DNA of 57,165 nucleotides from positions 1-57,165 of the IMG/VR virus record IMGVR_UViG_3300025115_000012; one strand, 5' to 3'. Positions 2,890 through 34,297 of the stretch are shown piece after piece. The stretch comes from a virus (lineage: Duplodnaviria > Caudoviricetes). Both the position numbers and the translations under genes were made by a program. Under the pieces are notes generated by a model that saw only the letters and a program-made list of their open reading frames with translations, did not search any database and was not told the DNA's origin. The stretch's first letter is position 1, and each line of letters opens with the position of its first letter.

Positions 2890-3045
2890 ATGGCAAAATT
2901 ATTACCATACCAAGTCAAAGGAAAAGCCAAGTCGGTACAAAAACCCGAAGTGGGACAGCACATGGATAAAGCAAAAAAGAAAAAACCTCTTTTTGTAAAG
3001 AAAGAGAAACGGAAGAATTATGAAGGCGGTATCGTCGAAAGATAG
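2890..3045 (+). CDS. 51-aa basic protein (MAKLLPYQVK...IVER), not in ORF track
   Basis: Fills the gap exactly: ATG 2 nt after the upstream stop; TAG overlaps the GTG of the next gene. Confidence 0.65.
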   Translation: MAKLLPYQVKGKAKSVQKPEVGQHMDKAKKKKPLFVKKEKRKNYEGGIVER

Positions 3046-18508: not shown

Positions 18509-21500
18509 GTGCCTGAGAACGAGTTATTAACCATAAAACCTAATACTGATTTTGGTTTTAAACCGAGATTAAATCCAGGATTAAATCCTGGACAGCAAAT
18601 ACCTACCAAAGCTGATAAGACTGCTACGAATATACCTGACAAGGTCGCATTAGAGAATACTGCTGAAAGATACGATCCATTAAAGCGGATAGAGGCGGAC
18701 AGGACAGGTGCTTCATATACTCCATATAAGCCTAAATATGATTTGATACAAGGCAAAAGCAGGGAAGCTGAACAAATAAATAAAGTTAAAGCTTTGACAG
18801 ATGAGCTCGATTGGCAATATGACCCTGACAGGCTGGACAGGGAAGAAAATAAAAAGAGACTATATGGCGGTCTTGACTTAGGAGTTAGTTTTCACAAGAA
18901 GTGGGATTACGATAAAAATAGTTATACCCATACTATTGGTATTGATTTAAACAAAATAGACTTAGCCGAGCAAGAGCTGAATAAACGATTCAAAGAATTC
19001 GAGACTGAAATGCGATCAAAATTTGGTAACGATCCTTTAATGATGAGACGGTTAAATGAGGGTATAAACAGCGAAAGAGGGTTTCAAGGATTGTTGGATA
19101 CTGATTTCTCATGGGATGTTATAAAAGATTGGATGCATATAGCAGGTGGCGGAGCAGGTGAAGGAATGACCTTTAATCGAGATATGCGGAAAATGGTAGA
19201 TTTTATCCATACTTATTTAAAGGCTAAAGATGACTTGCGAAAAGTAAGAAATCTTCGTCCTTTGTCTGACCGGTTAAAAGAAAAGAATGGTGAAGAATAT
19301 CAAAATTATCATGAACGACCAATTAATTATGATTTCAATGATGTTGGCACTTATTATATGGGGAAAGCTATAGATGGAGCTTTCGGCAAATTGGCTAATG
19401 GCCTGTCTAAAAGATTCTTTGGAGAAACCATTTACAACAAATCAGATGTGCTAAGCTTGCAAGAGAATATCCAAAATTTTATAGAAAGCGGATATTATTC
19501 TGATAAACCTGAAATTGAACAAAATTCGGCTGAAATAGCACGTTATCTTGCAGAAAGAGACGAAAGCACAACAGGATTGTTCGATACGGCAGTCATGGTA
19601 GGTGGAGACATTGCTGAAATTGTAGCTAGTATGAGAGCCGGACCATTTGCACTAGGCGGCAGATTATACTCAAGTGGACGAAACGTCTGGAATGCTTACA
19701 AAGGTGTAGAAAGAGCAAATAAAATCAATCAGACTACTAAATTGATAAATCTTAATAAGATATATGCAGAAAGTCCGGAATATGCAAAACGGTATAATAT
19801 GTTCAAGGCATTATCAGGCAAACACAATACGAGAGGTGTAGCAAGTGGAGGCATGCTTCCGAAGGTTCAAGATCTATTAGGAAACAGAGCAGACTATATT
19901 GGGAACATGGTTGTCGGAAGTTTTGTAGATCAAATGTTATCTATGGACGAGAACCTAACTGCTCCGGAACTTGCAGAGGGTATGAGGAACATGGCAATCC
20001 TTGCTATGTTTAATTATCAATATTCTAAAGCGTTCATGTATGCAGGTCAAATGGCAGGCTTAACCAAGAATGTAATGCAAGGCACTAGATATGGTAATGC
20101 AGTAGGCAGCAAGTTTGACGCTTTAAGCAAGGCAATGATAGCAGCTGGTCAGTTTGCAGCACAACCTGGGCAAAGTTTGACTATTAACAATGTTTTGGAA
20201 GGGGAGGATTACACAGCCAAACAAATGGTAGCAGACGTGATGTTTGGATTTATGATGGGATATAATGATTTCTTACTAACTTCCAGATCTTACAAAGTGT
20301 TTAAAAGAGCAAATCTAAGAGATGATATTATAAAAAGCAATTATGCAGAAGTTGATTATATTCCGTATGAGCATATTTACTATACTGATACTCATACTAA
20401 CGAGTTAAGAACAAGAACCAAACCAATGACAGAAGGCAAAGAAGGCGACTTGTTACAAATAGATATGTCTAAACCAGAACAAGCTGCTTTTGACCAAGTT
20501 GTTCAAGATCGTATCAAACAAGCCGAAGGAACACTCAAGAAAGGTGAGATGATAACTGTCAAATCTAGCAACAAAGCGAATATGCAAGGTGTTTCAATCC
20601 TCAAAACACAAAGCTTTGGACGCAAGATTGATAGTGAAGTAAGACGGAAATTAAGCATTGACGAGAACATCCCCATTAAAGCAACTCATTTAATTGAAGC
20701 ATTTAGTGACGGTATGAACCAAGTGAGAATACCTAAGTATATCCAGGAATTATTTAAAGACATATCTGATAATATTGATGTAATCTTAACTGACCAATTG
20801 GGTGAAAGCACACCAGCTGCTTATAAAGATGGGAAATTTTACTTAAATGACAATTTAGGATTAGTTACCAAAACAGGCAAGATTGACAAAGAGGCATCAA
20901 TTGCGATATCTCACGAAATGACACACGCTTTGATAGACCATGCTATAAAGGTAAACCCTGACTTCGCCATTGCGATAGAAGAAATATACCAGCAATATTT
21001 TAATAAAGTAACAGATTTTGTAAAGAAAAATCCGGAAGCATACTCGATTATAAATGAAAAAGCAGGTGGTATTCTTAATAAGACGTTTTTGAATATAGAC
21101 AATGATGGCAATCCTGACCATTATAGGAATATGCAAGAAATGATAGCTTTAATGTATGAAGCTTCTTCAAAAGCTAAGTATTTCAGAACGTTAATGCACA
21201 ACGTAGATCCTAGTTTAAAAGGTAAATTTTTGGGTAAGATAGCCAATGCCTTTGGACTTTCACCTGAAGCATACAAAAGAATAGATCATGAATTAACCAA
21301 TTATAAGAAATATATTAATCCGGAAGCGGAGCAAACCGCCATAGATTACGATACAGGCACGGAAAATGCAATACCAGGTGAAATGCCCTATGCAGATGAA
21401 AACGTGGTTTACGATGAAGATGTGGACTATTTGGACAGTCCTGAAACGTTTCGACCTTTGGATATGTCTACGGAATCATTAAAAACAGATAGTTTTAAAG

Positions 21501-24500
21501 AATGGTTTGGCGATTGGGAAACGGATCCAGAGAATGCAAGTAAAACGACAGGCAGTTCCTGGAAAAAAATGATTACAGATGAATATCAAAAAGCTAAAAG
21601 TTCAGGCATGAAATACAGTGAACGACAAAAAATATTTGATCCACAGACTGGTGTTCTTAAACTGGATTTGAACGATCCTTATCATAACAGATTAAAATAT
21701 GAACTAGAAAATGACTTGCCTATTACTTTCTATCATGCAACAGGTGTAAGTGAAGATTTTACCCAATTCCAACCGTTCCGTAAACGCAAAACAGGGAATT
21801 GGTATGGAATATATGGCTCTATCAGTCCTAAATTAAATGAGTCTTATGCGGGGACAAAAAGGAATGAAAACAATTTGATAGATTTCGCAGACAAGGTAAA
21901 AGATGCTTTCACAGGCAATTGGAATAAAAAGCCTAATCTTGCTTCTCCAAGTCCACGGCAAATACCATTGTATTTTAATTTGAAAAACCCATTGATATTA
22001 AATGAGCATCTAGGTGGGAAGAAATTGGGTACAACTTATGTACAGTTTGATTATGAATTTCACAACCCTGTAGAACAAGCAAGAGAAACGTTCATAATGG
22101 TTAGGGATGTCCTAGCTAATGCATTAGGATCGAAAAGTCTAAAAAAAATAACCTATTCACAAGCAAAAGTAGCGGTAGGGACAATCGCAGCCTCATTGCC
22201 TTTGTTATTAGGTGAACCTGACGTATATAAATCTGTAGAAAATTTAGCCAGATTAGGTATGGTATCAGCGGGATTCGCATCATCCGGAGAAGTTGCTAGT
22301 TTGTTAGCTTCTTCTCTTTATCAAGTCAAAAGACAAATAGATAAAGTTACTAACCCTGTGGGTAAATTAGAAAAGAAAGTAGCCAAAAACCCAGAGAAAT
22401 ATACTGATATATCGTTTATTTCAGAAGGAATGTATAATATTCTTAAAAACATGGGATATGACGGAATTATATTTAATGATGGATTTGAAATATTAGCTTT
22501 TGATCCTACCCAGGTTAAGTCGGCTACGAGCAATAAGGGTACATACGATTCTAATAACCCTGACTTTTTGGAAATGGCAACTTCTTCATTGAGAGATGAC
22601 CTTGACGAGATCCTTGGTGGTGAATTTGATCTTAAAAAAGTTGAATTCATGGAAGAGGCAACAAGAATATTAACTCCTCAAGAACCGGGAACTAAAAGAG
22701 AAGTTAATAATGAAGAAAAAGTTAATTATGTTAGTCTAAAAAATAAGTTAAATTTAACAAATGAAGAATTTGTAAAATTACTTGGTCAGGACAAAACAAC
22801 TGTTGTCGAAAGGTTAAAACAAAATCCCGAACTGCAAGATCCTTTGGAAATAAATAACAATGCTCGCAAGATATTGCATACTGAACCTAAAAAGTCGTTT
22901 ATAATCAAAACTCGTGAAAGAGATTATGAAGATGATTCAATTGTGTTTTCAGGCATGGCAGAAGCCAATATTGACCCAACAGGGAAAAACATATTACCAT
23001 ATCGAGGACAGCCTGCTTATCTCAAAAAAGGATTTTCACGAATAGCAGCTGATACAAAAATTCCATTGTTACAAAAAATATTCAATTCTGAAATAATGGA
23101 TATAAACGGAGAAATAAATACTGTACTTACCTTCCAATTTCCTGCTAACAAGGTAAATCCACGCTCATTCTCGCCTACGTTTTTGCATTCAGCTATTGAC
23201 CAGGGTGTCTTCATCTTGCCTAAAACGACAGGTCAGAAAATGATGATTATTCCGGAACTAAAAGATATGAGCCGTGAATCTAAAAATGATTTTGTAAGAA
23301 AGGCAAATGCTGAAATTTTTGAAAAGGTTTTGGATTCGGACTATATATGGAATGACGATTATCAGAAACGTGAGCAAGTCATGAACACTGTTAAGTTGCT
23401 AGATATGGACAAGGTTATTCCTGCAGTTTTACTTGACAAACCTATAAAAATGCGTGAAGTTTTAAAACCTGAATATCAAGGCATGGATGATAAACAGTTG
23501 GAACCTTACATTGCCGTTAACAGCCTTATCAAACAGAAAATATTAGAATTCTATACCGATAATAGAAAAAACCGTCAAGTACCTGATTATTATCAAGACG
23601 ATGCTAAACCCAGCGATGTTTACGACGTATTGGCAAAGCATATATACATGCTTACAGATACCGGCGGGAAAACGTATTTTAATAAGTTTGACAAAGATGG
23701 TAAACCTAGTCTTATTAAAGGAACAGATAAATATGCTAATATCTTATTCTCGGAACATCATAATAAGCTTATAGATTATGATGACTTTAAGCTTACAGCT
23801 CAAGATGAGGTATTAGAACAAATGGAAGTTCCTGAACAAAAAGAACGTTTAAAGAATGTTTATGGTTCAGAAATAGATTCTAATGGTGATGTAAGAGTAA
23901 GAACTTTCAATTTTAATCAAGATATGGTAACTGACTTGTTAGATGCTTATCCCGAATTAAAAGACAGCTATAACAGATTTATACAATCTTTTGATGATAA
24001 TGTAACAGACGGAGCATTATTCTGTTTAAATCAACCTTTATATGATGTGCTTGCAAAGTCTTTGGGAATAACTGATACAAAAGGATTAGCCGGATTGAAA
24101 CCTAAAGGATTCGAATATGAAGACAATGGTAATATCCGTATAACAAAAGGTATGTTATGGGGACCGGAAAACTTTAAAAATTTTGGTAACAATGAGTTCC
24201 TTAGTAAGGTAATTGAAACAATGCAAGATAACAATATTGCGATATTGTCATTCCCTACTGCTTCGAAAGGTGCTCATACCAGGAGGGTTAAGTTTGCATC
24301 TTCACCTGATGGCAAAAACAGGTATGTTCTTAATAATGACAATAACTTAATTAGAGTAGAAGACCAAACTGAAAACGGTTGGGTATCTAATCCAGAAGCT
24401 ACTAATTTCGAGAAATCAAACATATTGAATAACTTGTTAAACAATAATGCACCCATCCCCGACCATTTTGTTTCTAAGTTAAAAATTACAGGTGATGACG

Positions 24501-27500
24501 CTCTTACGTTTGAACAGTATGTCCATAAATCTCAAGTAACAAATACTTCAAATGGGTTTGAAACCTTACCGGCCTTTAATGCGAGCAGTGCACTGTTCAA
24601 TACGCCGGAAGGCAATGCAGTGACAAGGATCATGAGAAACGTGATAAGGCAAAATATCAACAAGTACCGGAAAATTGATAATGCGTTATTAACCATTGGC
24701 AATCTAGGAAGACGAGTATTGGCTACACCTTCTAAATTAAGAGAAGATATCGAGTTTTCACGTAAAGAACTAAATAGCATCGGAATATATTTAAAAACAG
24801 CTAAACATCATTTCCAAAGAATGATTGATAATGACAGTGGTGAAGAAGCACAATACCTTTATAACATGAGAGCAGAAGATATGGTCAAAAAGATTGACGA
24901 GATGCTGGACGATAAAGGTAAATTCAAACCTAACTCATTAATGCTATTGTTTTCTTTGGACAATGTGGTTGGCGGGCCGTTCCTGTCACGTGGTCAGACT
25001 GTTTTGGCTAAAATATTGCTTTTCCAGAATCTTGAATCGAAAATTAAAGGTCGTATCCCGACTATTAATGCAAAGATTGCACCTGATATAAATATGGACA
25101 ATGTCCTTGCGACGACAAGAGAATTACTTGGCGAAGCGATTGATGCTGAAATGAATTATGATCCTGAAACAAACAGCTCTGATTATATAGATGAGTATGG
25201 CAAACTAAAAGAAGGAGGAGCTGTTATAGGGAAAGATATATGGGAACTTGAAAATCGCATGCGAGAACAAAATAACATGGAACCGTTAAGAATAGGTGAC
25301 AAGATGCTTTTTAACAAGACCCCTACTGATGATATGACTAACGTTCTAATCCCTACTAAATTCGCAGGTATATCACCAATGGACGGAGTTGCTATCATGA
25401 ATGGTAAATATGTTACTAAATACACAGGTGGTGATTATGATGGTGACGGTATAAATTATGTCCGGTCTGACAAGAACTTTAACAAAGCCGATTATGACAG
25501 GGTATATGACTACTTAGATAGTATTACAGAATTGAGAAAATCAGTCAAAGATGTTGCTAATGAATTTAAAGAACTAGTAGAAAAAGATACTAAGGGATAT
25601 CTTGTTATAAACAAGCTATTAGGACTTGAGCCAAAAGACAATAATATGTCATTAGCTTCAGAAGAGTTTGGTTCGAATATGGCGAAACACCAACTAGGAC
25701 AAGATAAGGGTATTGTGTTAATAAATAATATTGGACACGTATTGAACCAAGTCGCCCTAGATGCTAACAATAGTATCGCCAGCAATAAAGTTAAATTATC
25801 AGTAAAACTAAATTCTAGGGAAAGCCAGGAAATTAAAGTTAGGGTTAATCCAGCTTTGGATATTGATAAGCTAGGTATGTTATCCTTTCTTAAACAAACA
25901 TTTGTGGATAGTTACGAAACTATGCCATTTGATAGAGAAGAGGCTGTTTACCGGACAGTATTTAATGATGCTACAGTTTTCTTGCCTGATAAAACAACAA
26001 TGAGCCTAAAGGATTATATTAAATCTACCGGTAAACCGGCAATGCCAATATTAAGAGATATTTTTAAAAAGCTTGCAGAACCTAGCTTATTAGAAGCACG
26101 AGGATTGTGGAATGAACAGAATATTGCTGATATTGTAGATAAGGTATTAGGATTAGATTACCATGATGTCCCAAATCGCAAAGATGCTACTAGTTATCGT
26201 TATACTTTGAAAGATTATCGCAGAATATTAGCTAGCGATATGAAGGAATCACAGCTTATGCCTGATGTGGAACCTGTTATAGAACCGCCTTCTAAGGAAT
26301 TCCTTCCGGAAGTGTTAGAACAAAATGCTATACCTGGCGAAGAACCTGGACAGATTCCTAAATCGGTTAAAGAAGTTGCACAAAGTGAGACAAAACAAGA
26401 TGCGACACCTTCGTCTTTAAGTACAAAATACGAGTGGGCTAGATATGCAGAAAGCGGATATGAAGTGTCTTCGGCGGGGGATAAGAGGTTTAGTGCTTTA
26501 AATGCAAGGTTAAAAGACGGAAGGACAATTGAAGAGGCTTACCAATTGGATATCAAGGGTTATCGCAGCCAAGGTGACAATTGGAGATTAGGCAAAGGCA
26601 AAAAACCATTAAATAATATTACACCTGAAGACAGTTGGAGTAAATATAAAAGTCTTTGGGAACAATTCTTAAATGAAAATCCTGATCTTAAACAAGATTT
26701 AGCTCAAAAAGCACTTGGGAAGCCTCTCACAGACAAGTTTGCCGAGACCGATGTATCACAAGCAAGGGCATTAGCTGAAATTTTGAATGAGCAACCAATA
26801 ACGAGTTCTGACCAACCTATCCAGGCAGGACCGCCTAAAGTAGGTGAAATGCTGAAAGAAATGGTATCGGGAACTAAGTTAGGTGCTGCTTATGGTATTT
26901 TGAAAGGATTAGAGGGGATTCATGCTCCTGCTACTAAGTTATTGGTCGGGGACAACCCATTTGAATTATATGCCCGATTAAAAGAAAAATCTGATATTGT
27001 AAACACAGATGAATATACAGAGCAGGACGTTGTTGGGATTGTACCAACAGATAGATTTGAGCAATACGAAGAATTGCAAAATGCAATTAACAGCAATGTA
27101 CTAGGATTCACATTTGCAGTAAAAGCTCCAAGTGCAAATAAGGGTAAAAACGAAATATACGAAATAATCCAGGGTATGTTAAAGGAAGGCGGGTATCAAC
27201 GTTATAAAGACACTCATAAATGGTTCAAGCCGAAGAGCAAAACAACTACTGACAAAGCTGCACCTGAACAGCGTGTGAAATATGTGGATATGGGCAAATT
27301 TGACCGAGATCCTAATAACAGGGCTATGGGTACAAGTGCTGACAGAGCTATGAGGGAAGTAGCTGATGGGTTTATTGGGGAAGTGTTTAATGAAGACACA
27401 AAGAGTTCTACATCTACATCAAGTCTTCACTTCTCGAATGAAAACAATATTAGTAGAAGCACAGAACATCTTGGAACTGAAAAGGGAATGGTTTATTTTG

Positions 27501-30500
27501 ATTTACCTGATGAAGCTATTCCTGGAACCCATACCATTATGTTAGCACGTAATAGCGAACTTGCAAAAATAGGCTTAGACAATAGCACTAAAAAACAGAT
27601 AAAGGTAATGCATGATCAAGGCCATGATTTTGTAGTTGGGAATAGTTGGATAGATCAACCTTTCCATGATTATTTAGAGGAGATTGGAGCCAAATATACC
27701 GTTTATGGTCATGAAGGGAAGAACCGGATCAAACCTAAAGAAGTGAAAAGTATAACCGAACCATTGACGGCAAAGCCTAGTTCGGAACCAGCTCTAAAAA
27801 TAGAAGAAGTGCATCGTTATAATCCGGAATTGTTAAGAGAAAACCCTGATAAGTTATATGTATTTGGTGATAATCTTACAAGAAAGGGACGTGGCGGACA
27901 AGCTGTTATTAGAAAAGAACCTAATGCAGTAGGTATTGTTACTAAATTGGCACCATCTAAAGATGCTGCTGCTTATATGTCAGACAATGACTTGTCAAAT
28001 AACCAAAAAATCATTGATGCTGATATTCAAAATATAAAATCAAAACTTTCCCAATACCCAGGCGGGCTTGTCTTTCCTAAAGATGGGTTAGGAACAGGAT
28101 TGGCAGAATTGCATTGGCGTGCATCGGAAACATTCGCATATCTAAACAGAAGACTTGCAGAAGAATTCGGATACAAGAAATTCAACCGATTCCCAAACGA
28201 AACGACAACTACTAAAGAGCAAGCAGGTTCATTTACCGATGCTATAGCTAAACGGCTTGCTGATGAGAAGGCTAAAACTGCATCTCCTGTCCTGAATAAG
28301 CCTGAACATGTAATTTCGTTAGGTGACGGTATTCCTGTCATGGCTTATTTAGGTAGAGAGAATATGTACGAGAACGATCCTGCTTTTATTGATGCCGTTA
28401 GAAAAGCATTTCCTGGGATAGAATATGCTAATGAGAAATCGGCAGGAAGGTCTAATAGTGATTATATATATTTGAATGAATTTGCACCAGATAAATATGT
28501 TATGAATAATCGGGATAAGCACTTTGTTGTTTCAAATCAACGTTCTTGGCCTGTATTAACAGAGAATGGCATAAAATATTCTGTAATAGGGTATGAAGGT
28601 ATTAATTGGCCATTAAGAAAGGAACATTCACGCAATGAGTATAGCAATGAATTAACTCGCATGATTGCTATTCAGAAAATGCATAATTCAATTGATGAAG
28701 TATTACTTGGTCTTTCGAAAACTATTAAAGCTGATGCTCAACGTTTTCCGAAACTTAAAGAAATGTTTTCTCATTTCGAAAACGCAAAGAAATTTAATGA
28801 TAAGGTATGGATAAGTTCAGAACAAACACATATTGCTTTTCTTGTTGCCAATCTAGCTTATAATGGTCACAGATCGCATACATCAGAAGGAAACAGTTCG
28901 CCGTATGAAGTTTTCAATACCAAAACAAATCAATACGAACAAATGGAAATGCTGTATGGGCTGACTTCATTTAAAGATCATTTAGGATTGCCTTTATTCA
29001 AAAGTGACAAATTCCCGAATGTAAAAATCGCAGCCGGTACTATATTGAAATATTTGATTGATAACAATCCTGTTAAAAAAGGTGAATTTGTCGTATGGAA
29101 TAAGGATGATGCCCAGATTATAGCAAAAGATGGAGTATTAAATGCTTATCGTGGCGGAGAAGTAAAGAAACAGATTAACCTAAATGAGATATTTGACAAA
29201 GACGGCCGGTTAGTGCCTGATTGGTTGCCTTCTGATTTGTTGCAAAGTAAAAAGTTCAGAGAATTGATTGATATTCAAAATCCTATTAACAAGAAAGAAT
29301 TTGGTAAAGTAAGAGCTAAGATAGTAAAGAACATTGCCCATAATATGGCACAAGAAGCTGCACAGAGCGGATTAAATCTTGATAAGGATATATTAGCTAC
29401 CTATATCGCTTTTCACCCTGTAAAGTTAAGCAAATACTTAGCAGAACAGATTATAGGCGGGATATTTAACCCGATTTTCCCAAAACATGCGGATCCGAAA
29501 TATACTCTGCATAAAAAGACTGAGAACTATATCGGCAAAGGACGAGCACAGGATTATTTGGCAAGTAACAAAATGGACAATCCTTGGGATGCTATTAGTT
29601 ATTTAAAAGATGAAGGTATTAATTTGAAAATAAATCCTCAAGTAACTTTGGATGATCATTTGACTAAGAGCATTACAAGTGAAAGTATTGGGATCAAAGG
29701 ATTGGAAATGTCAATTGAATCTTTGCAAGATACTGAAACAAGTTTGAAACATAGCGGTTATCATGAGTTTTATAAATCTTTAGCTAAGATTATTGAACAA
29801 AGTCCGGATCCTGAATTAGTTAAATTACAAGGCAAGTCTATATTAGACTACAATTACGACGATATGAAAGTTTTGAACCGGAAAGTATTTCTTCCTCATT
29901 TGGAGAAGATATTGCCTAATCTTGCAATTAAAGCCAAAATGCCGCCAGAAAAAGTATCAAAATGGGCAAAAGACAATCTTGATAAAATCATGGACATGTA
30001 TGGACCGGCGGATCTTGTACGTGAACTTGAGGGTGATGGCGGTTATTATGACAAGTTAATAAGCCCGACTAATGATGTAAGGCAAATAGCGAAAAAACTT
30101 GCTCATATGAGTTATATAATGGCAGTTGCAGACATGCTAAAGAAATTTGAAACAATGAATACCGGAAAGGATATTCATAATTATCAAATCCTGAAGTCAA
30201 GAATTCCTACTCAAATGATAAATGAGTTCTCAGGGAATAAAACAGTTTATTCCTGGAATGAACAAATATTAGGTATTCCTTCGTTTAACGGTATGGGTAA
30301 TTCTGTCATGCATTATGAAATAATGGAACACAATCCTGCAATCAATACGGAAGTGTCATTGCCTTTTGGTACTTATGCTAAACAGTATCCATTAGTAAGG
30401 GCTATACAAAAGTTAACCGAATTGAAAGCTCATGTTGATATCCAAAACCAATATGTAGATAACCAATTAACAGCGTCAGAAAAACTGAACAAGAACAATT

Positions 30501-33500
30501 TAGCATTAGAATCTATTGAGAATTTAGAATCAGTCGGGTTTAATGTTATCGAACCATCCAGCATTGAAGGTGCAGGGAACCGGATTAAGAGTGGTCAGAA
30601 AATAACGGATATGATTGATATCCAAACTGCAAGTAATCGTGGGGTTAAAGAAGAAAGTGTTATTTCTTTGAAGTTGGATAAAATTATAAACTTCGCTTTA
30701 ACATCTGAAAACGTAAACACAGCAGTGGATATGCTTGTTGATGCTTGGGAAAGAAACATGATTGAATCTCAAGGATCCATGATGAACACAGATGGGACTT
30801 CGACATATGATCCTGCATATTATTTGTTAAAGACTAATAAACAGGCATTTGATTCAGACTTACCTTTAGCAGAACAGTTATCAGCCATGAAGGCAAATTT
30901 GACTGAACAGTTGAAAGATTACATTAACTACAAAGAAGCTGTTTTGACGTATAAAAATAGTTTGATGACTTATAAAGAAGCGTTAATAGATTTTGAACAA
31001 AGATATTTACGTAATAACGAAATAGTAGAAGCTAATCCTAATGTTAATATATTAAATGACTTAATGAAAATTCAGTCCTATATAGACCGGATTGGGAATG
31101 TTGAGGCAAAAGATCTTAATCGGCTTACCAAGACATTAAAGGAAGGAGTAAGTTTAAGCGAAGTCTCTACTATATTTGATCAAAAGTATATTAAACCGGC
31201 AGAAGAAACATTGAACAGTTATCAAAACAATGTAAAACTTATAAACGAACAAATAAACAATTCACTTAAAGGCAATGCTAAAAAAGGATTCCAAATCGGC
31301 AGGAATAAGATTCGTAAACTTATTGATTTATTAACTCCGGAAGAGAGGGTAGAGCTTGACCGAAATGGTTGGAGTTTCATGATAAAACGATTCCTTCCAG
31401 AAATTGATGCGATTGCTGAAGAATCTTCTTCTAAAGCGGAAAAGCTTGATGAGGGATTTAGGATTGTACCGGATCTTAAGGCAAAAGCTAAATTTATGAC
31501 GTTAATAGAACATGTTTATAATAACTATTATACTTTGAACAAACATCCTTATCATGACATGATGGTTAAATTAGGATGGTCAGAATATCTAGAAAAACCT
31601 TGGCATAGAATACATACCGCAAATGAATGGAAGTTAGCAAGTAAAGGCAGGGAGATGGTCTTACGTGCACACGAGAGTGCTGTTACAAGAGCTGCAAAGC
31701 AAGAAAGCATAACCGTCTTTCATAAAAAGGATGAGACTAAGTCATTTGAAAGTACTCAAGCTGAATTTAAGCAAATAATGGCTGGGAGCAAATCCAAACC
31801 TTATTGGGGATATACCGATTTATTAAATGCAAATTTTGACCAAACAGAAAAAGCAACTTACTTGTCAAATAGCATCAAAACATTTGGTGAAGATATTGGT
31901 GAAAGAATACAAGGTTCGTTATACAATGTATCTACAGAAAGCATGCGGGTATACTTGGATAACATGAAAGATCCTAACCCATTTGCTCACATGAATACGA
32001 TATCAGAACTTTCAAAAGCTTCTAATGGTCATTATAATTACAGACAAGTTATTGATCCGGCAGAATACAGATTAGAGTTCCATAATGCCGAATTAGGCAA
32101 TAACTTGTTTGTTCCTAAGGGATTAAGCACAGGTGATATCGTTTTGATTGGACTTGAAGGCGGGAGGACTATCCCGGTTAGAATGTTAGGCGGTATCAAA
32201 ATTAAGAATGCAAATGGTGTTTATGATGCATATTACGCTTTTGGGAATGATCCTACAAAGTCAAAAGATTTGAGTTACATTTCTGCTGATAGGATTAAGA
32301 GCATGCATAAAGCAAATGGTGAAACATACTTATCGAAAGCTATCCTGGAAGGTCAAAGAAAGAAATTAAACCAAATAATAAACAATGACCAGGAACTAGT
32401 AAATGCTATAAAAAACGTAGTTGAGATTAAGACAGGCGAACAAAACGTATCTTATGAAAGTTGGGAGAATACAGTGAATCCCAAAGTAGTAAAAGCAATT
32501 GACGAATCGTTGCAGACAAGTGGCGGTAGGAAGATAGTAGAATACATGGCCAATGCCAGCGACAAAGCTGCAGTAGCTTTGTATTACTTAAGGTTAAGGC
32601 ATTTAATAGACGGAGTATTTAAAGCAGGGCTTCATGTAGCTGCAAGCAATCCGGCAGGGGCGTTGTATAGTGGCTTATCTGCTACAACAAAATGGTTGCA
32701 AGGTGTGTTCTTCCAGATAAAGTTTCAAAACAGTATGGGTCATTATGACAGGATATATCAAAACAGTGTTCCGCAACGGAAATATATCAAAAACGGTGTA
32801 GGTGCAATAGGTAGAGGCGTTAGGGCATTGTTAGATCCTTGGTTCCAAAGTGGTGATACGAAGAATGAGATTAATGAAAGGAACATAGCTAATATCGCTT
32901 CACATCTGGTAGCAATGGAACATGGTTTAACAAAACAAACTTTAGGTCAAGAACAAATAAATAGTATTATAGACCGTGCTTTTGAGACTGAAGAAAAAGC
33001 TAATGCGGCAATATACGAAATGATAACAGGCAAAAAAGCTCCTTGGTGGAAACCAGGAGCAACTACGAGCTTGTTGAATAAAATGGCTAAAGGCATGCAA
33101 GAATTAGATCCTGCTTATGGTATTGACAATGAATTAGGTGAACAATTGCGTGCCGGTACAGAATATAACAGCCGGGCAGTTAAAAGAGTAGTTGATAGGC
33201 TTGAATGGGTTAAGGTACCAATAACAAAAAATGTGTATAATTCCCAGACTAAAAGACACGATATTGAAACACAATATTTCCATATTCCAAGGATTAAGGG
33301 CTTATCAGACAGGGATAATATTTTTGTTATGACACTCATGGATCAGTTGCTTGATATTGCATCATTAAAGGGCAGGATAGCGGCTAATGAAATAGGGAGT
33401 GCGAAAAAAGCAGTTACCTCATCTATAAACAATATGAACAGGTATCAATCGCAATATCTGTCCGGATTAGGTTCAATGACACCTGAATTTATGGCAAATA

Positions 33501-34297
33501 AGGCTAAGATTGACCAATATAAAATGATAGGCTATTACGGGAAGAATCTGAAACAGCAAGGATTAATGGCACGGCAGTTATTAAGATTTTCTAATTTTGG
33601 ATTTGAAAAAGGACAAGACCGCAGTACATATTGGAATATCAGGCGTGACATGTACAATGCATATAGAACAGCTATTGGTCCAAAATTCGATACATTCTTA
33701 AACGATATGGCAAAAATCGGTATTCCTATTGGCGAATGGTATTTAGCTGATCCTAAAGCAGATATGACAAGAACAGCAACTGCAATGTTCACATCTAAAG
33801 CACTAGGTGTATTGGTTAAATATAGTGTAAATGCACTAGGAGCAACTACGGCTAATGCTATTATGAGTGCTTTTGAAGATCCGGAAAAAGATTTAAGTGA
33901 GATATTTTCAATGTCCGGATTTGCTTTTGGTCCTTTAGAGATATTGGCAAATACATTAGCAGGAATAATAAATTTATATTTAATGTTTACAGCAGAAGGT
34001 AAAACAGGCAAACATGAAGCAGCTCTTCAGTCCAAACATGCTCGTGATTTTATGATGAACCCAGGCAAAGGATTTAGCGGCGTATTAGGGAAAGGTGCAA
34101 CTGACGCTATAAATGCTGTAACAGTTGCGTTATTTAATGCTTGGGCACATTTGGGCGGTTTTGACAATATGTATGATAGAGATCCATGGCAAAAATTAAA
34201 CAAGTATAATATGAAAGTTGAAGAAAATATGTTAAATTACATCTACGGCGGATTAGGAAATGCAAAAACCGCTGCAGAATTATATTACACCAAATAG
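18509..34297 (+). CDS. Giant polyvalent virion protein with two-barrel RNA polymerase, zincin, ART-like and NADAR/SLOG/macro-like domains
   Basis: HEMTH 20912..20926; FKEWFGDW...YHAT...GYDGII...AFDPTQVKSAT 21494..22567; TDG 24005, KGML 24146, GGDYDGD 25427..25447; YEVSSAGDKRFSAL 26459; YVFGDN...GGQA...GLGTGLA ~27815..28170. The start codon is uncertain. Confidence 0.85.
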   Translation: MPENELLTIKPNTDFGFKPRLNPGLNPGQQIPTKADKTATNIPDKVALENTAERYDPLKRIEADRTGASYTPYKPKYDLIQGKSREAEQINKVKALTDELDWQYDPDRLDREENKKRLYGGLDLGVSFHKKWDYDKNSYTHTIGIDLNKIDLAEQELNKRFKEFETEMRSKFGNDPLMMRRLNEGINSERGFQGLLDTDFSWDVIKDWMHIAGGGAGEGMTFNRDMRKMVDFIHTYLKAKDDLRKVRNLRPLSDRLKEKNGEEYQNYHERPINYDFNDVGTYYMGKAIDGAFGKLANGLSKRFFGETIYNKSDVLSLQENIQNFIESGYYSDKPEIEQNSAEIARYLAERDESTTGLFDTAVMVGGDIAEIVASMRAGPFALGGRLYSSGRNVWNAYKGVERANKINQTTKLINLNKIYAESPEYAKRYNMFKALSGKHNTRGVASGGMLPKVQDLLGNRADYIGNMVVGSFVDQMLSMDENLTAPELAEGMRNMAILAMFNYQYSKAFMYAGQMAGLTKNVMQGTRYGNAVGSKFDALSKAMIAAGQFAAQPGQSLTINNVLEGEDYTAKQMVADVMFGFMMGYNDFLLTSRSYKVFKRANLRDDIIKSNYAEVDYIPYEHIYYTDTHTNELRTRTKPMTEGKEGDLLQIDMSKPEQAAFDQVVQDRIKQAEGTLKKGEMITVKSSNKANMQGVSILKTQSFGRKIDSEVRRKLSIDENIPIKATHLIEAFSDGMNQVRIPKYIQELFKDISDNIDVILTDQLGESTPAAYKDGKFYLNDNLGLVTKTGKIDKEASIAISHEMTHALIDHAIKVNPDFAIAIEEIYQQYFNKVTDFVKKNPEAYSIINEKAGGILNKTFLNIDNDGNPDHYRNMQEMIALMYEASSKAKYFRTLMHNVDPSLKGKFLGKIANAFGLSPEAYKRIDHELTNYKKYINPEAEQTAIDYDTGTENAIPGEMPYADENVVYDEDVDYLDSPETFRPLDMSTESLKTDSFKEWFGDWETDPENASKTTGSSWKKMITDEYQKAKSSGMKYSERQKIFDPQTGVLKLDLNDPYHNRLKYELENDLPITFYHATGVSEDFTQFQPFRKRKTGNWYGIYGSISPKLNESYAGTKRNENNLIDFADKVKDAFTGNWNKKPNLASPSPRQIPLYFNLKNPLILNEHLGGKKLGTTYVQFDYEFHNPVEQARETFIMVRDVLANALGSKSLKKITYSQAKVAVGTIAASLPLLLGEPDVYKSVENLARLGMVSAGFASSGEVASLLASSLYQVKRQIDKVTNPVGKLEKKVAKNPEKYTDISFISEGMYNILKNMGYDGIIFNDGFEILAFDPTQVKSATSNKGTYDSNNPDFLEMATSSLRDDLDEILGGEFDLKKVEFMEEATRILTPQEPGTKREVNNEEKVNYVSLKNKLNLTNEEFVKLLGQDKTTVVERLKQNPELQDPLEINNNARKILHTEPKKSFIIKTRERDYEDDSIVFSGMAEANIDPTGKNILPYRGQPAYLKKGFSRIAADTKIPLLQKIFNSEIMDINGEINTVLTFQFPANKVNPRSFSPTFLHSAIDQGVFILPKTTGQKMMIIPELKDMSRESKNDFVRKANAEIFEKVLDSDYIWNDDYQKREQVMNTVKLLDMDKVIPAVLLDKPIKMREVLKPEYQGMDDKQLEPYIAVNSLIKQKILEFYTDNRKNRQVPDYYQDDAKPSDVYDVLAKHIYMLTDTGGKTYFNKFDKDGKPSLIKGTDKYANILFSEHHNKLIDYDDFKLTAQDEVLEQMEVPEQKERLKNVYGSEIDSNGDVRVRTFNFNQDMVTDLLDAYPELKDSYNRFIQSFDDNVTDGALFCLNQPLYDVLAKSLGITDTKGLAGLKPKGFEYEDNGNIRITKGMLWGPENFKNFGNNEFLSKVIETMQDNNIAILSFPTASKGAHTRRVKFASSPDGKNRYVLNNDNNLIRVEDQTENGWVSNPEATNFEKSNILNNLLNNNAPIPDHFVSKLKITGDDALTFEQYVHKSQVTNTSNGFETLPAFNASSALFNTPEGNAVTRIMRNVIRQNINKYRKIDNALLTIGNLGRRVLATPSKLREDIEFSRKELNSIGIYLKTAKHHFQRMIDNDSGEEAQYLYNMRAEDMVKKIDEMLDDKGKFKPNSLMLLFSLDNVVGGPFLSRGQTVLAKILLFQNLESKIKGRIPTINAKIAPDINMDNVLATTRELLGEAIDAEMNYDPETNSSDYIDEYGKLKEGGAVIGKDIWELENRMREQNNMEPLRIGDKMLFNKTPTDDMTNVLIPTKFAGISPMDGVAIMNGKYVTKYTGGDYDGDGINYVRSDKNFNKADYDRVYDYLDSITELRKSVKDVANEFKELVEKDTKGYLVINKLLGLEPKDNNMSLASEEFGSNMAKHQLGQDKGIVLINNIGHVLNQVALDANNSIASNKVKLSVKLNSRESQEIKVRVNPALDIDKLGMLSFLKQTFVDSYETMPFDREEAVYRTVFNDATVFLPDKTTMSLKDYIKSTGKPAMPILRDIFKKLAEPSLLEARGLWNEQNIADIVDKVLGLDYHDVPNRKDATSYRYTLKDYRRILASDMKESQLMPDVEPVIEPPSKEFLPEVLEQNAIPGEEPGQIPKSVKEVAQSETKQDATPSSLSTKYEWARYAESGYEVSSAGDKRFSALNARLKDGRTIEEAYQLDIKGYRSQGDNWRLGKGKKPLNNITPEDSWSKYKSLWEQFLNENPDLKQDLAQKALGKPLTDKFAETDVSQARALAEILNEQPITSSDQPIQAGPPKVGEMLKEMVSGTKLGAAYGILKGLEGIHAPATKLLVGDNPFELYARLKEKSDIVNTDEYTEQDVVGIVPTDRFEQYEELQNAINSNVLGFTFAVKAPSANKGKNEIYEIIQGMLKEGGYQRYKDTHKWFKPKSKTTTDKAAPEQRVKYVDMGKFDRDPNNRAMGTSADRAMREVADGFIGEVFNEDTKSSTSTSSLHFSNENNISRSTEHLGTEKGMVYFDLPDEAIPGTHTIMLARNSELAKIGLDNSTKKQIKVMHDQGHDFVVGNSWIDQPFHDYLEEIGAKYTVYGHEGKNRIKPKEVKSITEPLTAKPSSEPALKIEEVHRYNPELLRENPDKLYVFGDNLTRKGRGGQAVIRKEPNAVGIVTKLAPSKDAAAYMSDNDLSNNQKIIDADIQNIKSKLSQYPGGLVFPKDGLGTGLAELHWRASETFAYLNRRLAEEFGYKKFNRFPNETTTTKEQAGSFTDAIAKRLADEKAKTASPVLNKPEHVISLGDGIPVMAYLGRENMYENDPAFIDAVRKAFPGIEYANEKSAGRSNSDYIYLNEFAPDKYVMNNRDKHFVVSNQRSWPVLTENGIKYSVIGYEGINWPLRKEHSRNEYSNELTRMIAIQKMHNSIDEVLLGLSKTIKADAQRFPKLKEMFSHFENAKKFNDKVWISSEQTHIAFLVANLAYNGHRSHTSEGNSSPYEVFNTKTNQYEQMEMLYGLTSFKDHLGLPLFKSDKFPNVKIAAGTILKYLIDNNPVKKGEFVVWNKDDAQIIAKDGVLNAYRGGEVKKQINLNEIFDKDGRLVPDWLPSDLLQSKKFRELIDIQNPINKKEFGKVRAKIVKNIAHNMAQEAAQSGLNLDKDILATYIAFHPVKLSKYLAEQIIGGIFNPIFPKHADPKYTLHKKTENYIGKGRAQDYLASNKMDNPWDAISYLKDEGINLKINPQVTLDDHLTKSITSESIGIKGLEMSIESLQDTETSLKHSGYHEFYKSLAKIIEQSPDPELVKLQGKSILDYNYDDMKVLNRKVFLPHLEKILPNLAIKAKMPPEKVSKWAKDNLDKIMDMYGPADLVRELEGDGGYYDKLISPTNDVRQIAKKLAHMSYIMAVADMLKKFETMNTGKDIHNYQILKSRIPTQMINEFSGNKTVYSWNEQILGIPSFNGMGNSVMHYEIMEHNPAINTEVSLPFGTYAKQYPLVRAIQKLTELKAHVDIQNQYVDNQLTASEKLNKNNLALESIENLESVGFNVIEPSSIEGAGNRIKSGQKITDMIDIQTASNRGVKEESVISLKLDKIINFALTSENVNTAVDMLVDAWERNMIESQGSMMNTDGTSTYDPAYYLLKTNKQAFDSDLPLAEQLSAMKANLTEQLKDYINYKEAVLTYKNSLMTYKEALIDFEQRYLRNNEIVEANPNVNILNDLMKIQSYIDRIGNVEAKDLNRLTKTLKEGVSLSEVSTIFDQKYIKPAEETLNSYQNNVKLINEQINNSLKGNAKKGFQIGRNKIRKLIDLLTPEERVELDRNGWSFMIKRFLPEIDAIAEESSSKAEKLDEGFRIVPDLKAKAKFMTLIEHVYNNYYTLNKHPYHDMMVKLGWSEYLEKPWHRIHTANEWKLASKGREMVLRAHESAVTRAAKQESITVFHKKDETKSFESTQAEFKQIMAGSKSKPYWGYTDLLNANFDQTEKATYLSNSIKTFGEDIGERIQGSLYNVSTESMRVYLDNMKDPNPFAHMNTISELSKASNGHYNYRQVIDPAEYRLEFHNAELGNNLFVPKGLSTGDIVLIGLEGGRTIPVRMLGGIKIKNANGVYDAYYAFGNDPTKSKDLSYISADRIKSMHKANGETYLSKAILEGQRKKLNQIINNDQELVNAIKNVVEIKTGEQNVSYESWENTVNPKVVKAIDESLQTSGGRKIVEYMANASDKAAVALYYLRLRHLIDGVFKAGLHVAASNPAGALYSGLSATTKWLQGVFFQIKFQNSMGHYDRIYQNSVPQRKYIKNGVGAIGRGVRALLDPWFQSGDTKNEINERNIANIASHLVAMEHGLTKQTLGQEQINSIIDRAFETEEKANAAIYEMITGKKAPWWKPGATTSLLNKMAKGMQELDPAYGIDNELGEQLRAGTEYNSRAVKRVVDRLEWVKVPITKNVYNSQTKRHDIETQYFHIPRIKGLSDRDNIFVMTLMDQLLDIASLKGRIAANEIGSAKKAVTSSINNMNRYQSQYLSGLGSMTPEFMANKAKIDQYKMIGYYGKNLKQQGLMARQLLRFSNFGFEKGQDRSTYWNIRRDMYNAYRTAIGPKFDTFLNDMAKIGIPIGEWYLADPKADMTRTATAMFTSKALGVLVKYSVNALGATTANAIMSAFEDPEKDLSEIFSMSGFAFGPLEILANTLAGIINLYLMFTAEGKTGKHEAALQSKHARDFMMNPGKGFSGVLGKGATDAINAVTVALFNAWAHLGGFDNMYDRDPWQKLNKYNMKVEENMLNYIYGGLGNAKTAAELYYTK

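Follow-up and report, generated by a model that had tools for sequence, protein, structure and literature searches.

What does a phage gain from a single protein that carries an enzyme domain for attaching ADP-ribose together with domains shaped like those that remove it? The window (the whole stretch of DNA analysed, a 57,165-bp virus record of an uncultured freshwater phage) holds one giant open reading frame (ORF) that makes up 27.6% of its length, and the original prediction placed putative ADP-ribose writer and reader/eraser domains on both sides of a polymerase in that chain. All the segments it named were found where it had placed them, in frame, within the one ORF. The names given to the flanking domains were upheld in part, and a DYDGD motif is the sole support for a polymerase between them. 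The features are as follows:

18509..34297, + strand: single giant ORF, GTG start, uninterrupted, 5,262 aa
21491..22543, + strand: ART-PolyVal ADP-ribosyltransferase domain, aa ~995-1345, Pfam PF18760
25433..25447, + strand: DYDGD motif, aa 2309-2313, sole support for an "RNAP core"
26429..26794, + strand: domain A, predicted compact NADAR/YbiA fold, aa 2641-2762, phrog_9995, AlphaFold model
26834..27223, + strand: segment X, orphan of ~130 aa (aa ~2776-2905) between domains A and B, without relatives
27296..27733, + strand: domain B, mobile domain family with conserved homologs, possibly YAcAr/SLOG-like
27818..28150, + strand: domain C, DUF7831, aa 3104-3214, intact, PF25176 / phrog_2072

A giant protein encoded among virion genes

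Tail-fibre-like genes lie upstream of the giant ORF, and the genes for the terminase large subunit, the portal and the major head protein lie downstream. According to excerpts of Iyer et al. 2017 (PMC5512222), polyvalent proteins sit among phage structural genes, and we count the position of the gene between tail-like genes and terminase, which is the location described there, in favor of a virion-type protein. Further traits of polyvalent proteins fit as well: the protein is very large, it is encoded beside virion genes and its 5,262 aa combine unrelated effector domains from four or more independent families. The product is most likely a polyvalent protein of the virion-delivered type, which would be packaged. 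Searches over this gene detected no kinship to crAss-like or any GenBank phage, nor did they turn up a cultured relative. One 13-kb contig from a public run, possibly the source sample, covers 25821-29500 with one difference; the fusion therefore does not come from a join peculiar to this record.

The ART-PolyVal-like domain predicted before the core was confirmed as a member of PF18760, matched in two stretches with 41.9 bits, the Pfam gathering score being 31.2 (E 2.1e-10; 36.1 bits when a longer piece was searched). A SFKEWFGDWE motif starts at nucleotide 21491 on its N-terminal side. H1076 within FYHAT and Y1102 within GIYGS form the H/Y half, which an insert of ~180 aa parts from the C-terminal YDGIIFNDGFEILAFDPTQVKSA block (D1318, E1327); the C-terminal stretch of the PF18760 match spans aa 1291-1345. 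The ART-PolyVal active site is described in excerpts of Iyer et al. 2017 (PMC5512222) as a His in strand 1, a Tyr in strand 2 and an Asp in strand 5. Here, D1318 and E1327 are candidates for the strand-5 acid, and in an alignment of three ART copies (that of the window and both copies of its colinear homolog) the His, the Tyr, D1318 and E1327 are all kept. A zincin-like HExxH region lies in the same chain.

For the "RNAP core", the DYDGD motif is present and pairs in the alignment with DFDKD of the single colinear homolog, but no polymerase match was obtained in Pfam, PHROG, PDB-sequence or GenBank-phage searches, and the core was not N4/T7-like in any search run.

The protein has in common with the polyvalent proteins, as excerpted from PMC5512222, its giant multidomain form within a structural gene block, an ART-PolyVal that is probably of the H-Y-D type, an HExxH region and a putative polymerase-like core, and in both cases domains are exchangeable between relatives; the same excerpts report an ART-PolyVal fused to the N4-like virion RNAP of Roseovarius Plymouth podovirus 1. 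However, the text of that paper nowhere mentions NADAR, macrodomain or SLOG, whereas the window has eraser-like folds on the same chain.

These folds belong to a cassette that comes straight after the DxDxD core, a position that would suit a role in the RNA metabolism of the polymerase-like core, for example in the processing of RNA ends that bear a NAD cap or ADP-ribose, or of repair intermediates. Comparative genomics has tied NADAR and macro domains to RNA repair, and such enzymes are reported to reverse RNA ADP-ribosylation (excerpts of PMC9503650 and PMC11833690, respectively). Nevertheless, the core is just a putative polymerase, with no profile or sequence match, Pfam searches of the ORF turned up neither an RNA ligase nor a kinase or 2H partner, and domains A and C move between giant proteins that are otherwise unrelated. 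We consider a role in RNA metabolism very unlikely.

The domains of the cassette

The cassette domains are strung like beads on a string via linkers rich in Pro, Glu, Lys, Ser and Thr. A 606-aa cassette query retrieved 2,557 representative proteins at E≤0.001, and the matches of its segments go far beyond chance.

Domain A, which carries a YEVSS segment, belongs to phrog_9995 (PHROG, E 5.4e-45). Its AF2 model (pLDDT 93.3) shows five helices and small flanking strands, in agreement with the description of NADARs (helices, small strands) in excerpts of PMC11125620. When the model was compared with 48,161 chains by VIA-align, just three reached Z≥8 (8bat_A, 9.2; 2b3w, 8.3; 8bau_A, 8.0), and the next-best chain had a Z of 3.7; these three are the only NADAR-superfamily representatives searched. 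The 8bat_A alignment covers 121 residues (of 219) at 20% identity, and 8bat is also the top Foldseek match (prob 0.94). By its model, domain A has a NADAR/YbiA fold. The name "NADAR-like" is upheld at this level but not by sequence profiles: neither the domain of the window nor any of the 78 members of the domain A family matched a NADAR HMM at E≤10, a six-frame search of the record with this HMM gave no match while the control genomes did match, and hhalign of domain A against 35 cyanobacterial NADARs and T4 gp30.3 returned a probability below 1%.

NADARs are described in excerpts of PMC11125620 as having a catalytic Glu and Lys in the core helix and a charged Glu, Asp or His in the last strand. 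In domain A, E2675, K2683 and D2742 are invariant in 78/78 family sequences and are candidate catalytic residues, D2742 coming after the last strand of the model. In two independent hhalign local alignments, neither of them significant, the invariant L-T-D of domain A lands on the NADAR last-strand acid, where T4 gp30.3 reads K-H-S and the cyanobacterial NADARs read L-V-E. Compared with the phage NADARs/AdfN (T4 gp30.3; Bas32, Bas60) and 8BAT, domain A has the same YbiA-type fold (Z 9.2 to 8BAT), and it probably shares with these phage proteins and the DarT1-associated NADAR antitoxins a conserved Glu and Lys in a helix as well as a last-strand residue that is charged, the residues being matched by motif only. 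In domain A the charged residue is an Asp, the acid also present in the DarT1-linked BC4488 class. In contrast, domain A is shorter (~125 aa versus 150-220, and roughly 65-90 residues fewer than the DarT1-linked NADAR, as seen in the 121/219 alignment), has a Glu-Lys spacing of 8 versus 7 in published NADARs, lies inside a 5,262-aa chain, and is missed both by Pfam NADAR and by profile-profile comparison.

Domain C holds YVFGDN...GLGTGLA and matches DUF7831 in Pfam almost from end to end (E 6.9e-37; 126.3 bits, the gathering score being 27; profile positions 7-117 of 118). The VIA-align neighbors of its AF2 model (pLDDT 91.8) are 2l8r (Z 6.5), 5m3i_A (DarG, Z 6.2), 4j5r (Z 6.2) and 6lfu (Z 6.0), with 103-114 residues aligned at 12-18% identity to the best ones; a Z below 8 is below the trusted level and possibly reflects a common arrangement. 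In a first look, 10 of the 12 top rows were macrodomains or ADP-ribose enzymes, with DarG first (Z 6.2), and in a second look TARG1 (Z 6.5, 6.2) and Poa1p (Z 6.0) led, Poa1p having a Z of 5.7 to 6.0 in the two looks. The predicted fold thus comes weakly closest to TARG1/DarG/Poa1p-type macrodomains. In our view, two loops of DUF7831 resemble motifs of the same macrodomains: a Gly-rich one that follows the first strand, and a P-x-x-G-x-G-T-G loop late in the domain. The label "macrodomain-like" is consistent with these nearest folds, but their Z is just 6.0-6.5, the sheet of DUF7831 is smaller, and no Macro-family HMM matched the DUF7831 piece at E≤10. Foldseek gave no significant row and no macrodomains (best PDB rows, PTP-type phosphatases, E≥0.069), BFVD gave nothing significant outside DUF7831 itself, and the domain C profile retrieved triosephosphate isomerase alone among PDB sequences (E≥0.057).

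Domain B, with ADRAMREV...FVVGN, has homologs in four proteins among those compared and at 37 IMG/VR loci, and represents a new mobile family, previously unnamed. The family consensus is GDGKDKAMR...IMLARNG...FVVGDMPGVD..F.DYL.EIGA, where the window reads GTSADRAMR and FVVGN-SWID. It keeps 31/43 conserved columns and has lost the other 12, including Gly/Asp-rich loops; judged from these columns, the copy in the window is eroded. The predicted "SLOG-like" domain is a real conserved domain, but its SLOG identity is carried by weak leads. SLOG Pfam families matched none of 34 family members at E≤10. With hhalign, domain B paired with five YAcAr sequences at P 0.0029 (probability 10.8%, 40 columns), against P 0.29-0.87 for four control pairings, and all its named language-model neighbors are DprA, YAcAr or YpsA, of the SLOG clan (0.84-0.88, below the lead level of 0.9). 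Domain B is possibly YAcAr/SLOG-like.

Segment X is a fourth segment of the cassette, missed in the original prediction. Neither Pfam nor NCBIfam gave it a match at E≤10, no relative turned up in IMG/VR, and none of the 150 best representatives of the cassette query covers it.

The cassette domains could also be binders without catalytic activity, or passengers in decay, that today have no part in ADP-ribose chemistry, as the 12 family-conserved positions absent from domain B and the lack of relatives of segment X might suggest. Domains A and C point the other way: A keeps 54/55 conserved columns, at or above the median family member, C keeps 22/23, within one mismatch of the median, and the invariant residues of both are polar and charged. 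Of all the explanations, we regard that of binders or passengers as the least probable.

Fusion partners and exchange of the cassette

Domain A is fused to DUF7831 in three proteins (P0002, P0023, P0003), to DUF4326 in three others (P0166, P0187, P0204), and to a cpYpsA SLOG domain in two cyanobacterial proteins. Excerpts of PMC9503650 and PMC7824862 give the same partner sets for phage NADAR, Macro and SLOG domains, and we count them in favor of an ADP-ribose-related role. The searches themselves establish what the domains are by family or by fold, how intact and how mobile they are, and that A-DUF7831 and A-SLOG/DUF4326 fusions recur.

The NADAR-Macro-SLOG-DUF4326 fusions of the same excerpts combine a matching set of partners in one polypeptide, and those of phages and giant viruses are predicted there to be deployed early or packaged. 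They differ in being typically stand-alone proteins or small fusions, whereas the set in the window lies within a giant virion-type protein that also has an ART. In addition, two of the three cassette domains of the window belong to families that lie outside the NADAR, Macro and SLOG superfamilies in Pfam.

The only colinear homolog found encodes two ART copies and the SLOG-like domain B but neither domain A nor domain C. Hence, the cassette is exchangeable, and the eraser-like domains are not obligate partners of the ART. An HMM built from the three ART copies detected no ART in ~290 other proteins or pieces bearing A, B or C, a weak test with a three-sequence model. From the homolog and this search, we conclude that the ART is not systematically coupled to the eraser-like domains.

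This bears on whether the protein contains, in its eraser-like domains, an antidote or toggle for its own ART-PolyVal, similar to an ART-NADAR or ART-macro toxin-antitoxin pair in one chain. Such an antidote would protect the DNA or the polymerase of the phage, or the cell that produces it, from ADP-ribosylation by the protein itself. Indeed, one chain bears both writer and eraser folds, ART-NADAR toxin-antitoxin pairs with H-Y-[E/D/Q] ARTs are known (YarT-YbiA, excerpts of PMC11125620), and toggles have been suggested for such fusions (Iyer et al. 2021, excerpts of PMC7824862). However, the homolog has two ART copies without A or C, and in most of their occurrences A and C come with no ART of this kind that the same three-sequence HMM could detect, 616 stand-alone proteins being counted for A and 27 for C. 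An antidote function appears decidedly improbable.

A possible role against ADP-ribosylating defenses

The reading we prefer, to which we give about an even chance, is that of a polyvalent, virion-type protein carrying an ADP-ribosyltransferase together with removers of ADP-ribose from nucleic acid. Here we infer catalysis, substrates, packaging and injection. Early in infection, the ART would draw on NAD+ to modify targets in the host, and domain A, with its predicted NADAR fold, would strip ADP-ribose off bases in nucleic acid; the DarT1-associated BC4488 class, which probably shares with it an Asp as last-strand acid, acts on guanine. DUF7831 would do likewise for another linkage or base, because its nearest folds, DarG and TARG1, are thymine-ADP-ribose hydrolases. 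Together, the eraser-like domains would ensure that phage DNA entering the cell can still be read where it is marked by DarT-type defenses. The injected toolkit and the protection from ADP-ribosylating defenses proposed originally are plausible and have precedents in excerpts on AdfN (PMC11825919), where stand-alone phage NADARs counteract DarTG1, and of Iyer et al. 2017/2022, but an obligate pairing of erasers and ART is not part of what was found. The protein would be a variant of a known phage strategy, with an ADP-ribose-attaching enzyme domain and two intact remover-shaped domains on one protein, and the domains of the window lead to testable candidates in cultured phages.

The substrates might instead be small. 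In that case, the cassette would degrade diffusible ADP-ribose-derived signals or toxins (such as cyclic ADPR isomers or ADPr-1''-phosphate) from TIR, SLOG or RES-type defenses, not macromolecules, with the NADAR, SLOG and macro-like domains splitting the labor over different bonds. Poa1p, among the nearest folds of domain C, is presumably an ADP-ribose-1''-phosphate phosphatase, which we count for small substrates. Excerpts of Iyer et al. 2022 (PMC9503650) make this proposal explicitly for phage Macro/NADAR/SLOG/DUF4326 combinations, and domain A has exactly the fusion partners concerned. Moreover, a basic extension for which ssDNA binding has been proposed (excerpts of PMC11543638) may be among the residues absent from domain A. 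We nonetheless find small substrates unlikely, if conceivable: all the phage NADARs tested to date, as excerpted from PMC11825919 and PMC11125620, act on guanine-ADP-ribosylated DNA, and the top structural neighbors of the cassette domains (DarG, TARG1 and the DarT1-linked NADAR) are DNA-acting.

A giant phage protein carrying mobile domains

The window, 57,165 bp long, is a whole virus record from IMG/VR, 100% complete by CheckV, that appears to derive from a freshwater metagenome. It contains one giant ORF, set among virion genes as follows:

18509..34297, + strand: giant ORF, 5,262 aa, 27.6% of the genome
Upstream of the giant ORF: tail-fibre-like genes
Downstream of the giant ORF: terminase large subunit, portal and major head protein
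26834-27223, + strand: segment X of the giant protein (aa ~2776-2905), located after domain A and before domain B, an orphan of apparently alpha/beta type

The terminase shares 22-24% identity with those of cultured phages. Outside aa 2630-3235, here called the cassette, the giant gene had no counterpart in GenBank phages at either the DNA or the protein level, and a DNA-level search of these phages with nt 21001-29000 gave no match.

The original prediction placed an ART-PolyVal domain before an RNA polymerase core and NADAR-, SLOG- and macrodomain-like segments after it, and read the whole as an injected toolkit that modifies host targets and shields phage DNA or RNAP against ADP-ribosylation defences. 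The quoted motifs were all at their places, and the observation was largely confirmed, while its interpretation was partly supported. The ART-PolyVal domain (aa ~995-1345) belongs to the Pfam family (PF18760, E 2.1e-10, scoring 41.9 bits where the cut-off is 31.2), its match being split into two stretches by an insert of ~180 aa.

Each of the three downstream segments, domains A, B and C, proved to be a genuine, conserved and mobile domain; the linkers of this region are enriched in Pro, Glu, Lys, Ser and Thr. Searching a library of 1.84 billion proteins with the 606-aa cassette (E<=0.001) retrieved 2,557 representative proteins. Among the best 150 of these, 106 carried A, 49 carried C, five carried A and C, and four carried A and B; 57 of the 106 A carriers exceeded 1,000 aa and 32 exceeded 3,000 aa. 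None of the large carriers among these 150 resembled the window's ORF outside the cassette, which indicates that A, B and C move between otherwise unrelated giant proteins. The whole cassette had no phmmer match among PDB sequences and nothing meaningful in NCBIfam, and the profiles of A, B and C retrieved only chance rows from PDB sequences (designed repeat proteins, a methyltransferase at E 0.04 and triosephosphate isomerase). Segment X matched neither Pfam nor NCBIfam, and IMG/VR yielded no relative.

A 13,043-nt contig from a separate assembly of a public run spans positions 25821-29500 with one difference from the window, but it is not independent support because this run may be the window's source sample. 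Two freshwater-sediment runs of other studies contained scattered identical pieces of 151-182 nt at a depth of 2-3, none of which crosses a domain boundary. None of the runs listed as containing this DNA was an RNA run.

Domain A and the NADAR fold

Domain A (aa 2641-2762) matched phrog_9995 (E 5.4e-45) but no Pfam or NCBIfam family. We found 616 stand-alone proteins of 77-247 aa, mostly 55-69% identical to it. Within GenBank, phiKZ-like phages carry it (e.g., PHIKZ082.1, 55% identity, E 5e-27), and the family extends to Caulobacter and Rhizobium phages and to dozens of giant proteins. A search of one genome per species across 185,579 species returned only 12 loci, mostly cyanobacterial. The alignment of 78 members has 24 invariant columns, mostly polar, and the window's copy keeps 54 of the 55 columns conserved at >=85%.

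The confident AlphaFold2 model of domain A (pLDDT 93.3, pTM 0.85) comprises five helices and small strands. Compared with 48,161 representative PDB chains, it reached Z>=8 for three only, which are the three structures that belong to the NADAR superfamily: the DarT1-linked NADAR of G. lovleyi (8bat_A, Z 9.2, rmsd 3.7, 121 aligned residues, 20% identity), YbiA of E. coli (2b3w, Z 8.3) and the NADAR from P. nicotianae (8bau_A, Z 8.0). After these, the best score was Z 3.7. In Foldseek, 8bat was likewise the top row (E 0.064, prob 0.94), followed by 8bau.

The first long helix of domain A contains an invariant Glu (E2675) and Lys (K2683), candidate counterparts of the Glu and Lys of published NADARs; the two are 8 residues apart in A and 7 in the published proteins. 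In the NADAR literature, a residue of the last strand sorts the subfamilies: YbiA has Glu there, the DarT1-linked BC4488 class Asp and gp30.3-type phage proteins His (excerpts of PMC11125620 and PMC11543638). An invariant Asp of domain A (D2742) falls on this position in two hhalign alignments, neither of them significant.

Profile methods did not recover this relationship. None of the 78 members matched Pfam NADAR at E<=10, and the hhalign probability was below 1% both for T4 gp30.3 by itself and for a set of 35 cyanobacterial NADARs with gp30.3 added. We conclude that domain A, as modelled, has the NADAR fold together with plausible catalytic residues, but falls outside the family by the HMM criterion. 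A NADAR label for phrog_9995-type proteins was not found in the portions of the literature searched; such proteins may already be listed in the supplements of PMC11825919, PMC11125620 and PMC9503650.

Domains C and B

Domain C (aa 3104-3214) is a full-length Pfam DUF7831 domain (PF25176, E 6.9e-37) that keeps 22 of the 23 conserved columns. All 27 stand-alone homologs, of ~110-200 aa, also carry DUF7831, a term absent from the literature searched; Caulobacter phage Seuss, for example, has a stand-alone DUF7831 protein. With its model (pLDDT 91.8), VIA-align placed M. tuberculosis DarG first (Z 6.2, 104 aligned residues, rmsd 3.4), with the macrodomains Poa1p (5.7), Chikungunya macro (5.5) and TARG1/C6orf130 (5.4) next; ten of the first 12 rows were macrodomains or ADP-ribose enzymes. 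A second structural comparison was led by TARG1 with ADP-ribose (Z 6.5), TARG1 4j5r (Z 6.2) and Poa1p (Z 6.0). Macrodomains thus head the ranking, but no Z reached 8 and Foldseek gave nothing significant in the PDB, so that macro-like is the best description of this fold, yet a weak one. The best Foldseek rows, PTP-type phosphatases, scored Z<=4.2 in the second comparison.

In BFVD, Foldseek matched domain C only to other DUF7831 proteins, which came from phages of Rhizobium and Caulobacter, from crAss-like phages and from giant viruses. The giant viruses of eukaryotes included Yasminevirus, Tupanvirus and Hyperionvirus (E 1e-12 to 5e-14). Hence, the DUF7831 family covers both phages and NCLDVs.

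Domain B (aa ~2930-3075) belongs to an unnamed family with the consensus GDGKDKAMR...IMLARNG...FVVGDMPGVD...EIGA. We identified 37 IMG/VR loci encoding it, each with the match at about 3001-3400, and in all 37 it lay only within very large ORFs; the ORF pieces measured 480-2,152 aa, 34 of them extending beyond the 5′ limit of the flank retrieved. Four of these pieces also carry C and one carries A. No stand-alone relatives of 88-282 aa were found. An overlay of B on C by MAFFT is an artefact, since hhalign showed no relation between the two domains.

For the predicted SLOG likeness of B, there were weak YAcAr/SLOG leads. Pfam had no family for any of 34 aligned members. Against five cyanobacterial YAcAr proteins, hhalign gave P 0.0029 (probability 10.8%), compared with P 0.29-0.87 for four control pairings, and aligned FVVGDMPGVD..F.DYL.EIGA..T.Y with the GGA.G.D helix-strand unit of YAcAr. 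In a language-model atlas, the window's B fell only among unnamed clusters; the named neighbors of an intact B homolog were all DprA, YAcAr or YpsA of the SLOG clan (0.84-0.88, a level that counts as no more than a lead). The window's B deviates at 12 of 43 conserved columns, including both Gly/Asp-rich motifs, whereas other members have a median of one deviation and a maximum of nine. Judging from its sequence, the window's copy is probably inactive or altered in role.

Fusion partners, a colinear homolog and candidate function

Domain A is fused with DUF7831, in either order, in the small two-domain proteins P0002 and P0023, and also in P0003, while A is joined to DUF4326 in P0166, P0187 and P0204. 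Two cyanobacterial proteins combine A with a cpYpsA SLOG domain (PF12694; L053 3935-5443, E 4.5e-29; L054 77-4678, E 9.4e-27), and in other large cyanobacterial proteins A is accompanied by both an RNase H-like domain (RVT_3) and an SF1 helicase (L047) or by RNase H (L049). A partner set of NADAR, Macro and SLOG in phages and giant viruses is given by Iyer et al. (excerpts of PMC9503650 and PMC7824862). The agreement between the two sets is independent support for A as a NADAR equivalent. The NADAR partner of DUF7831 can be the phrog_9995 family, invisible to HMMs.

Major defences of bacteria include ADP-ribosylation of phage DNA, as by DarTG, and signals derived from ADP-ribose, and few phage counter-enzymes to them have, to our knowledge, been tested. 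The antitoxin hydrolase is a NADAR acting on guanine-ADP-ribose in DarTG1 and the DarG macrodomain, with human relative TARG1, in DarTG2. Stand-alone phage NADARs defeat DarTG1 (PMC11825919). As A and C come nearest to the two antitoxin hydrolases and phage NADARs defeat DarTG1, removal of ADP-ribose from nucleic acid is favored as the most likely function of the cassette, by analogy and on modelled folds. The cassette may otherwise degrade small ADP-ribose-derived signals.

The one colinear homolog found for the giant protein, a giant ORF of at least 4,914 aa in IMG/VR (G001, from nt 2463), shares with the window the order of N-terminal region, ART, core, B and two later regions. It carries two tandem ART-PolyVal copies (aa ~974-1247 and ~1275-1489), each following FKEFFGDWE. 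Domain B is intact there, but A and C are absent, so that the eraser-like domains are additions in the window's lineage rather than fixed partners of the ART. In the window's giant protein, ART-PolyVal stands on the same chain as the NADAR-fold and DUF7831 domains, together with another mobile domain, B; in the remaining proteins with A, B or C no ART was found, by an HMM from three copies that makes a weak test. The cassette may be an internal antidote to the protein's own ART, and a writer and erasers delivered on one chain raise the question of how the phage would avoid its own ADP-ribosylation.

In its architecture the protein agrees with the concept of polyvalent proteins (PMC5512222), joined here with the theme of NADAR, Macro and SLOG domains from Iyer et al. 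(2021, 2022). Judging from gene position and precedent, the giant protein would be packaged and injected. The N-terminal third contains an HExxH motif, HEMTH (aa 802-806, nt 20912-20926), without a Pfam match; the homolog has HEPMH at aa 786, against 802 in the window. This region may be a zincin-like peptidase region typical of polyvalent proteins. The ~2,000 C-terminal residues (aa 3236-5262, nt 28214-34294) had no Pfam or PHROG match, and aa 3549-3920 and 4976-5112 are both kept in the homolog.

A more far-reaching reading is one that we consider rather improbable. In it, phrog_9995, including PHIKZ082.1 and hundreds of stand-alone phage proteins, would be an unrecognized minimal NADAR branch and DUF7831 a minimal DarG/TARG1-type macrodomain. 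Their repeated fusion, here on a virion-type giant protein, would form a two-base (guanine and thymine) DNA de-ADP-ribosylation kit that enters with the genome and beats DarTG1 and DarTG2 before the first transcript. The main value lies in the testable prediction on phrog_9995 and DUF7831. If A is an active NADAR-type hydrolase, NADAR counter-defence would be far wider than HMM-based surveys suggest, and the small genes of cultured phages are directly testable candidates. The recurrent fusion with A also provides a concrete hypothesis for DUF7831, a domain of unknown function present in giant viruses as well.

The region predicted to be an RNA polymerase core had no Pfam, PHROG, PDB-sequence or GenBank-phage match; only the DYDGD motif (aa 2309-2313) speaks for this identity. 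The cassette that follows it may alternatively serve RNA-end processing. No relatives of the core were found in IMG/VR beyond the colinear homolog, and a pattern search built from the aligned core added none; the genome search with the 1,261-aa core at E<=0.001 missed this homolog, which phmmer did align. In the likely source run, positions 25708-25850 are represented by two 143-nt unitig variants (depth 26.9 versus 9.6) with nine differing positions, indicating strain polymorphism just past the DYDGD motif.
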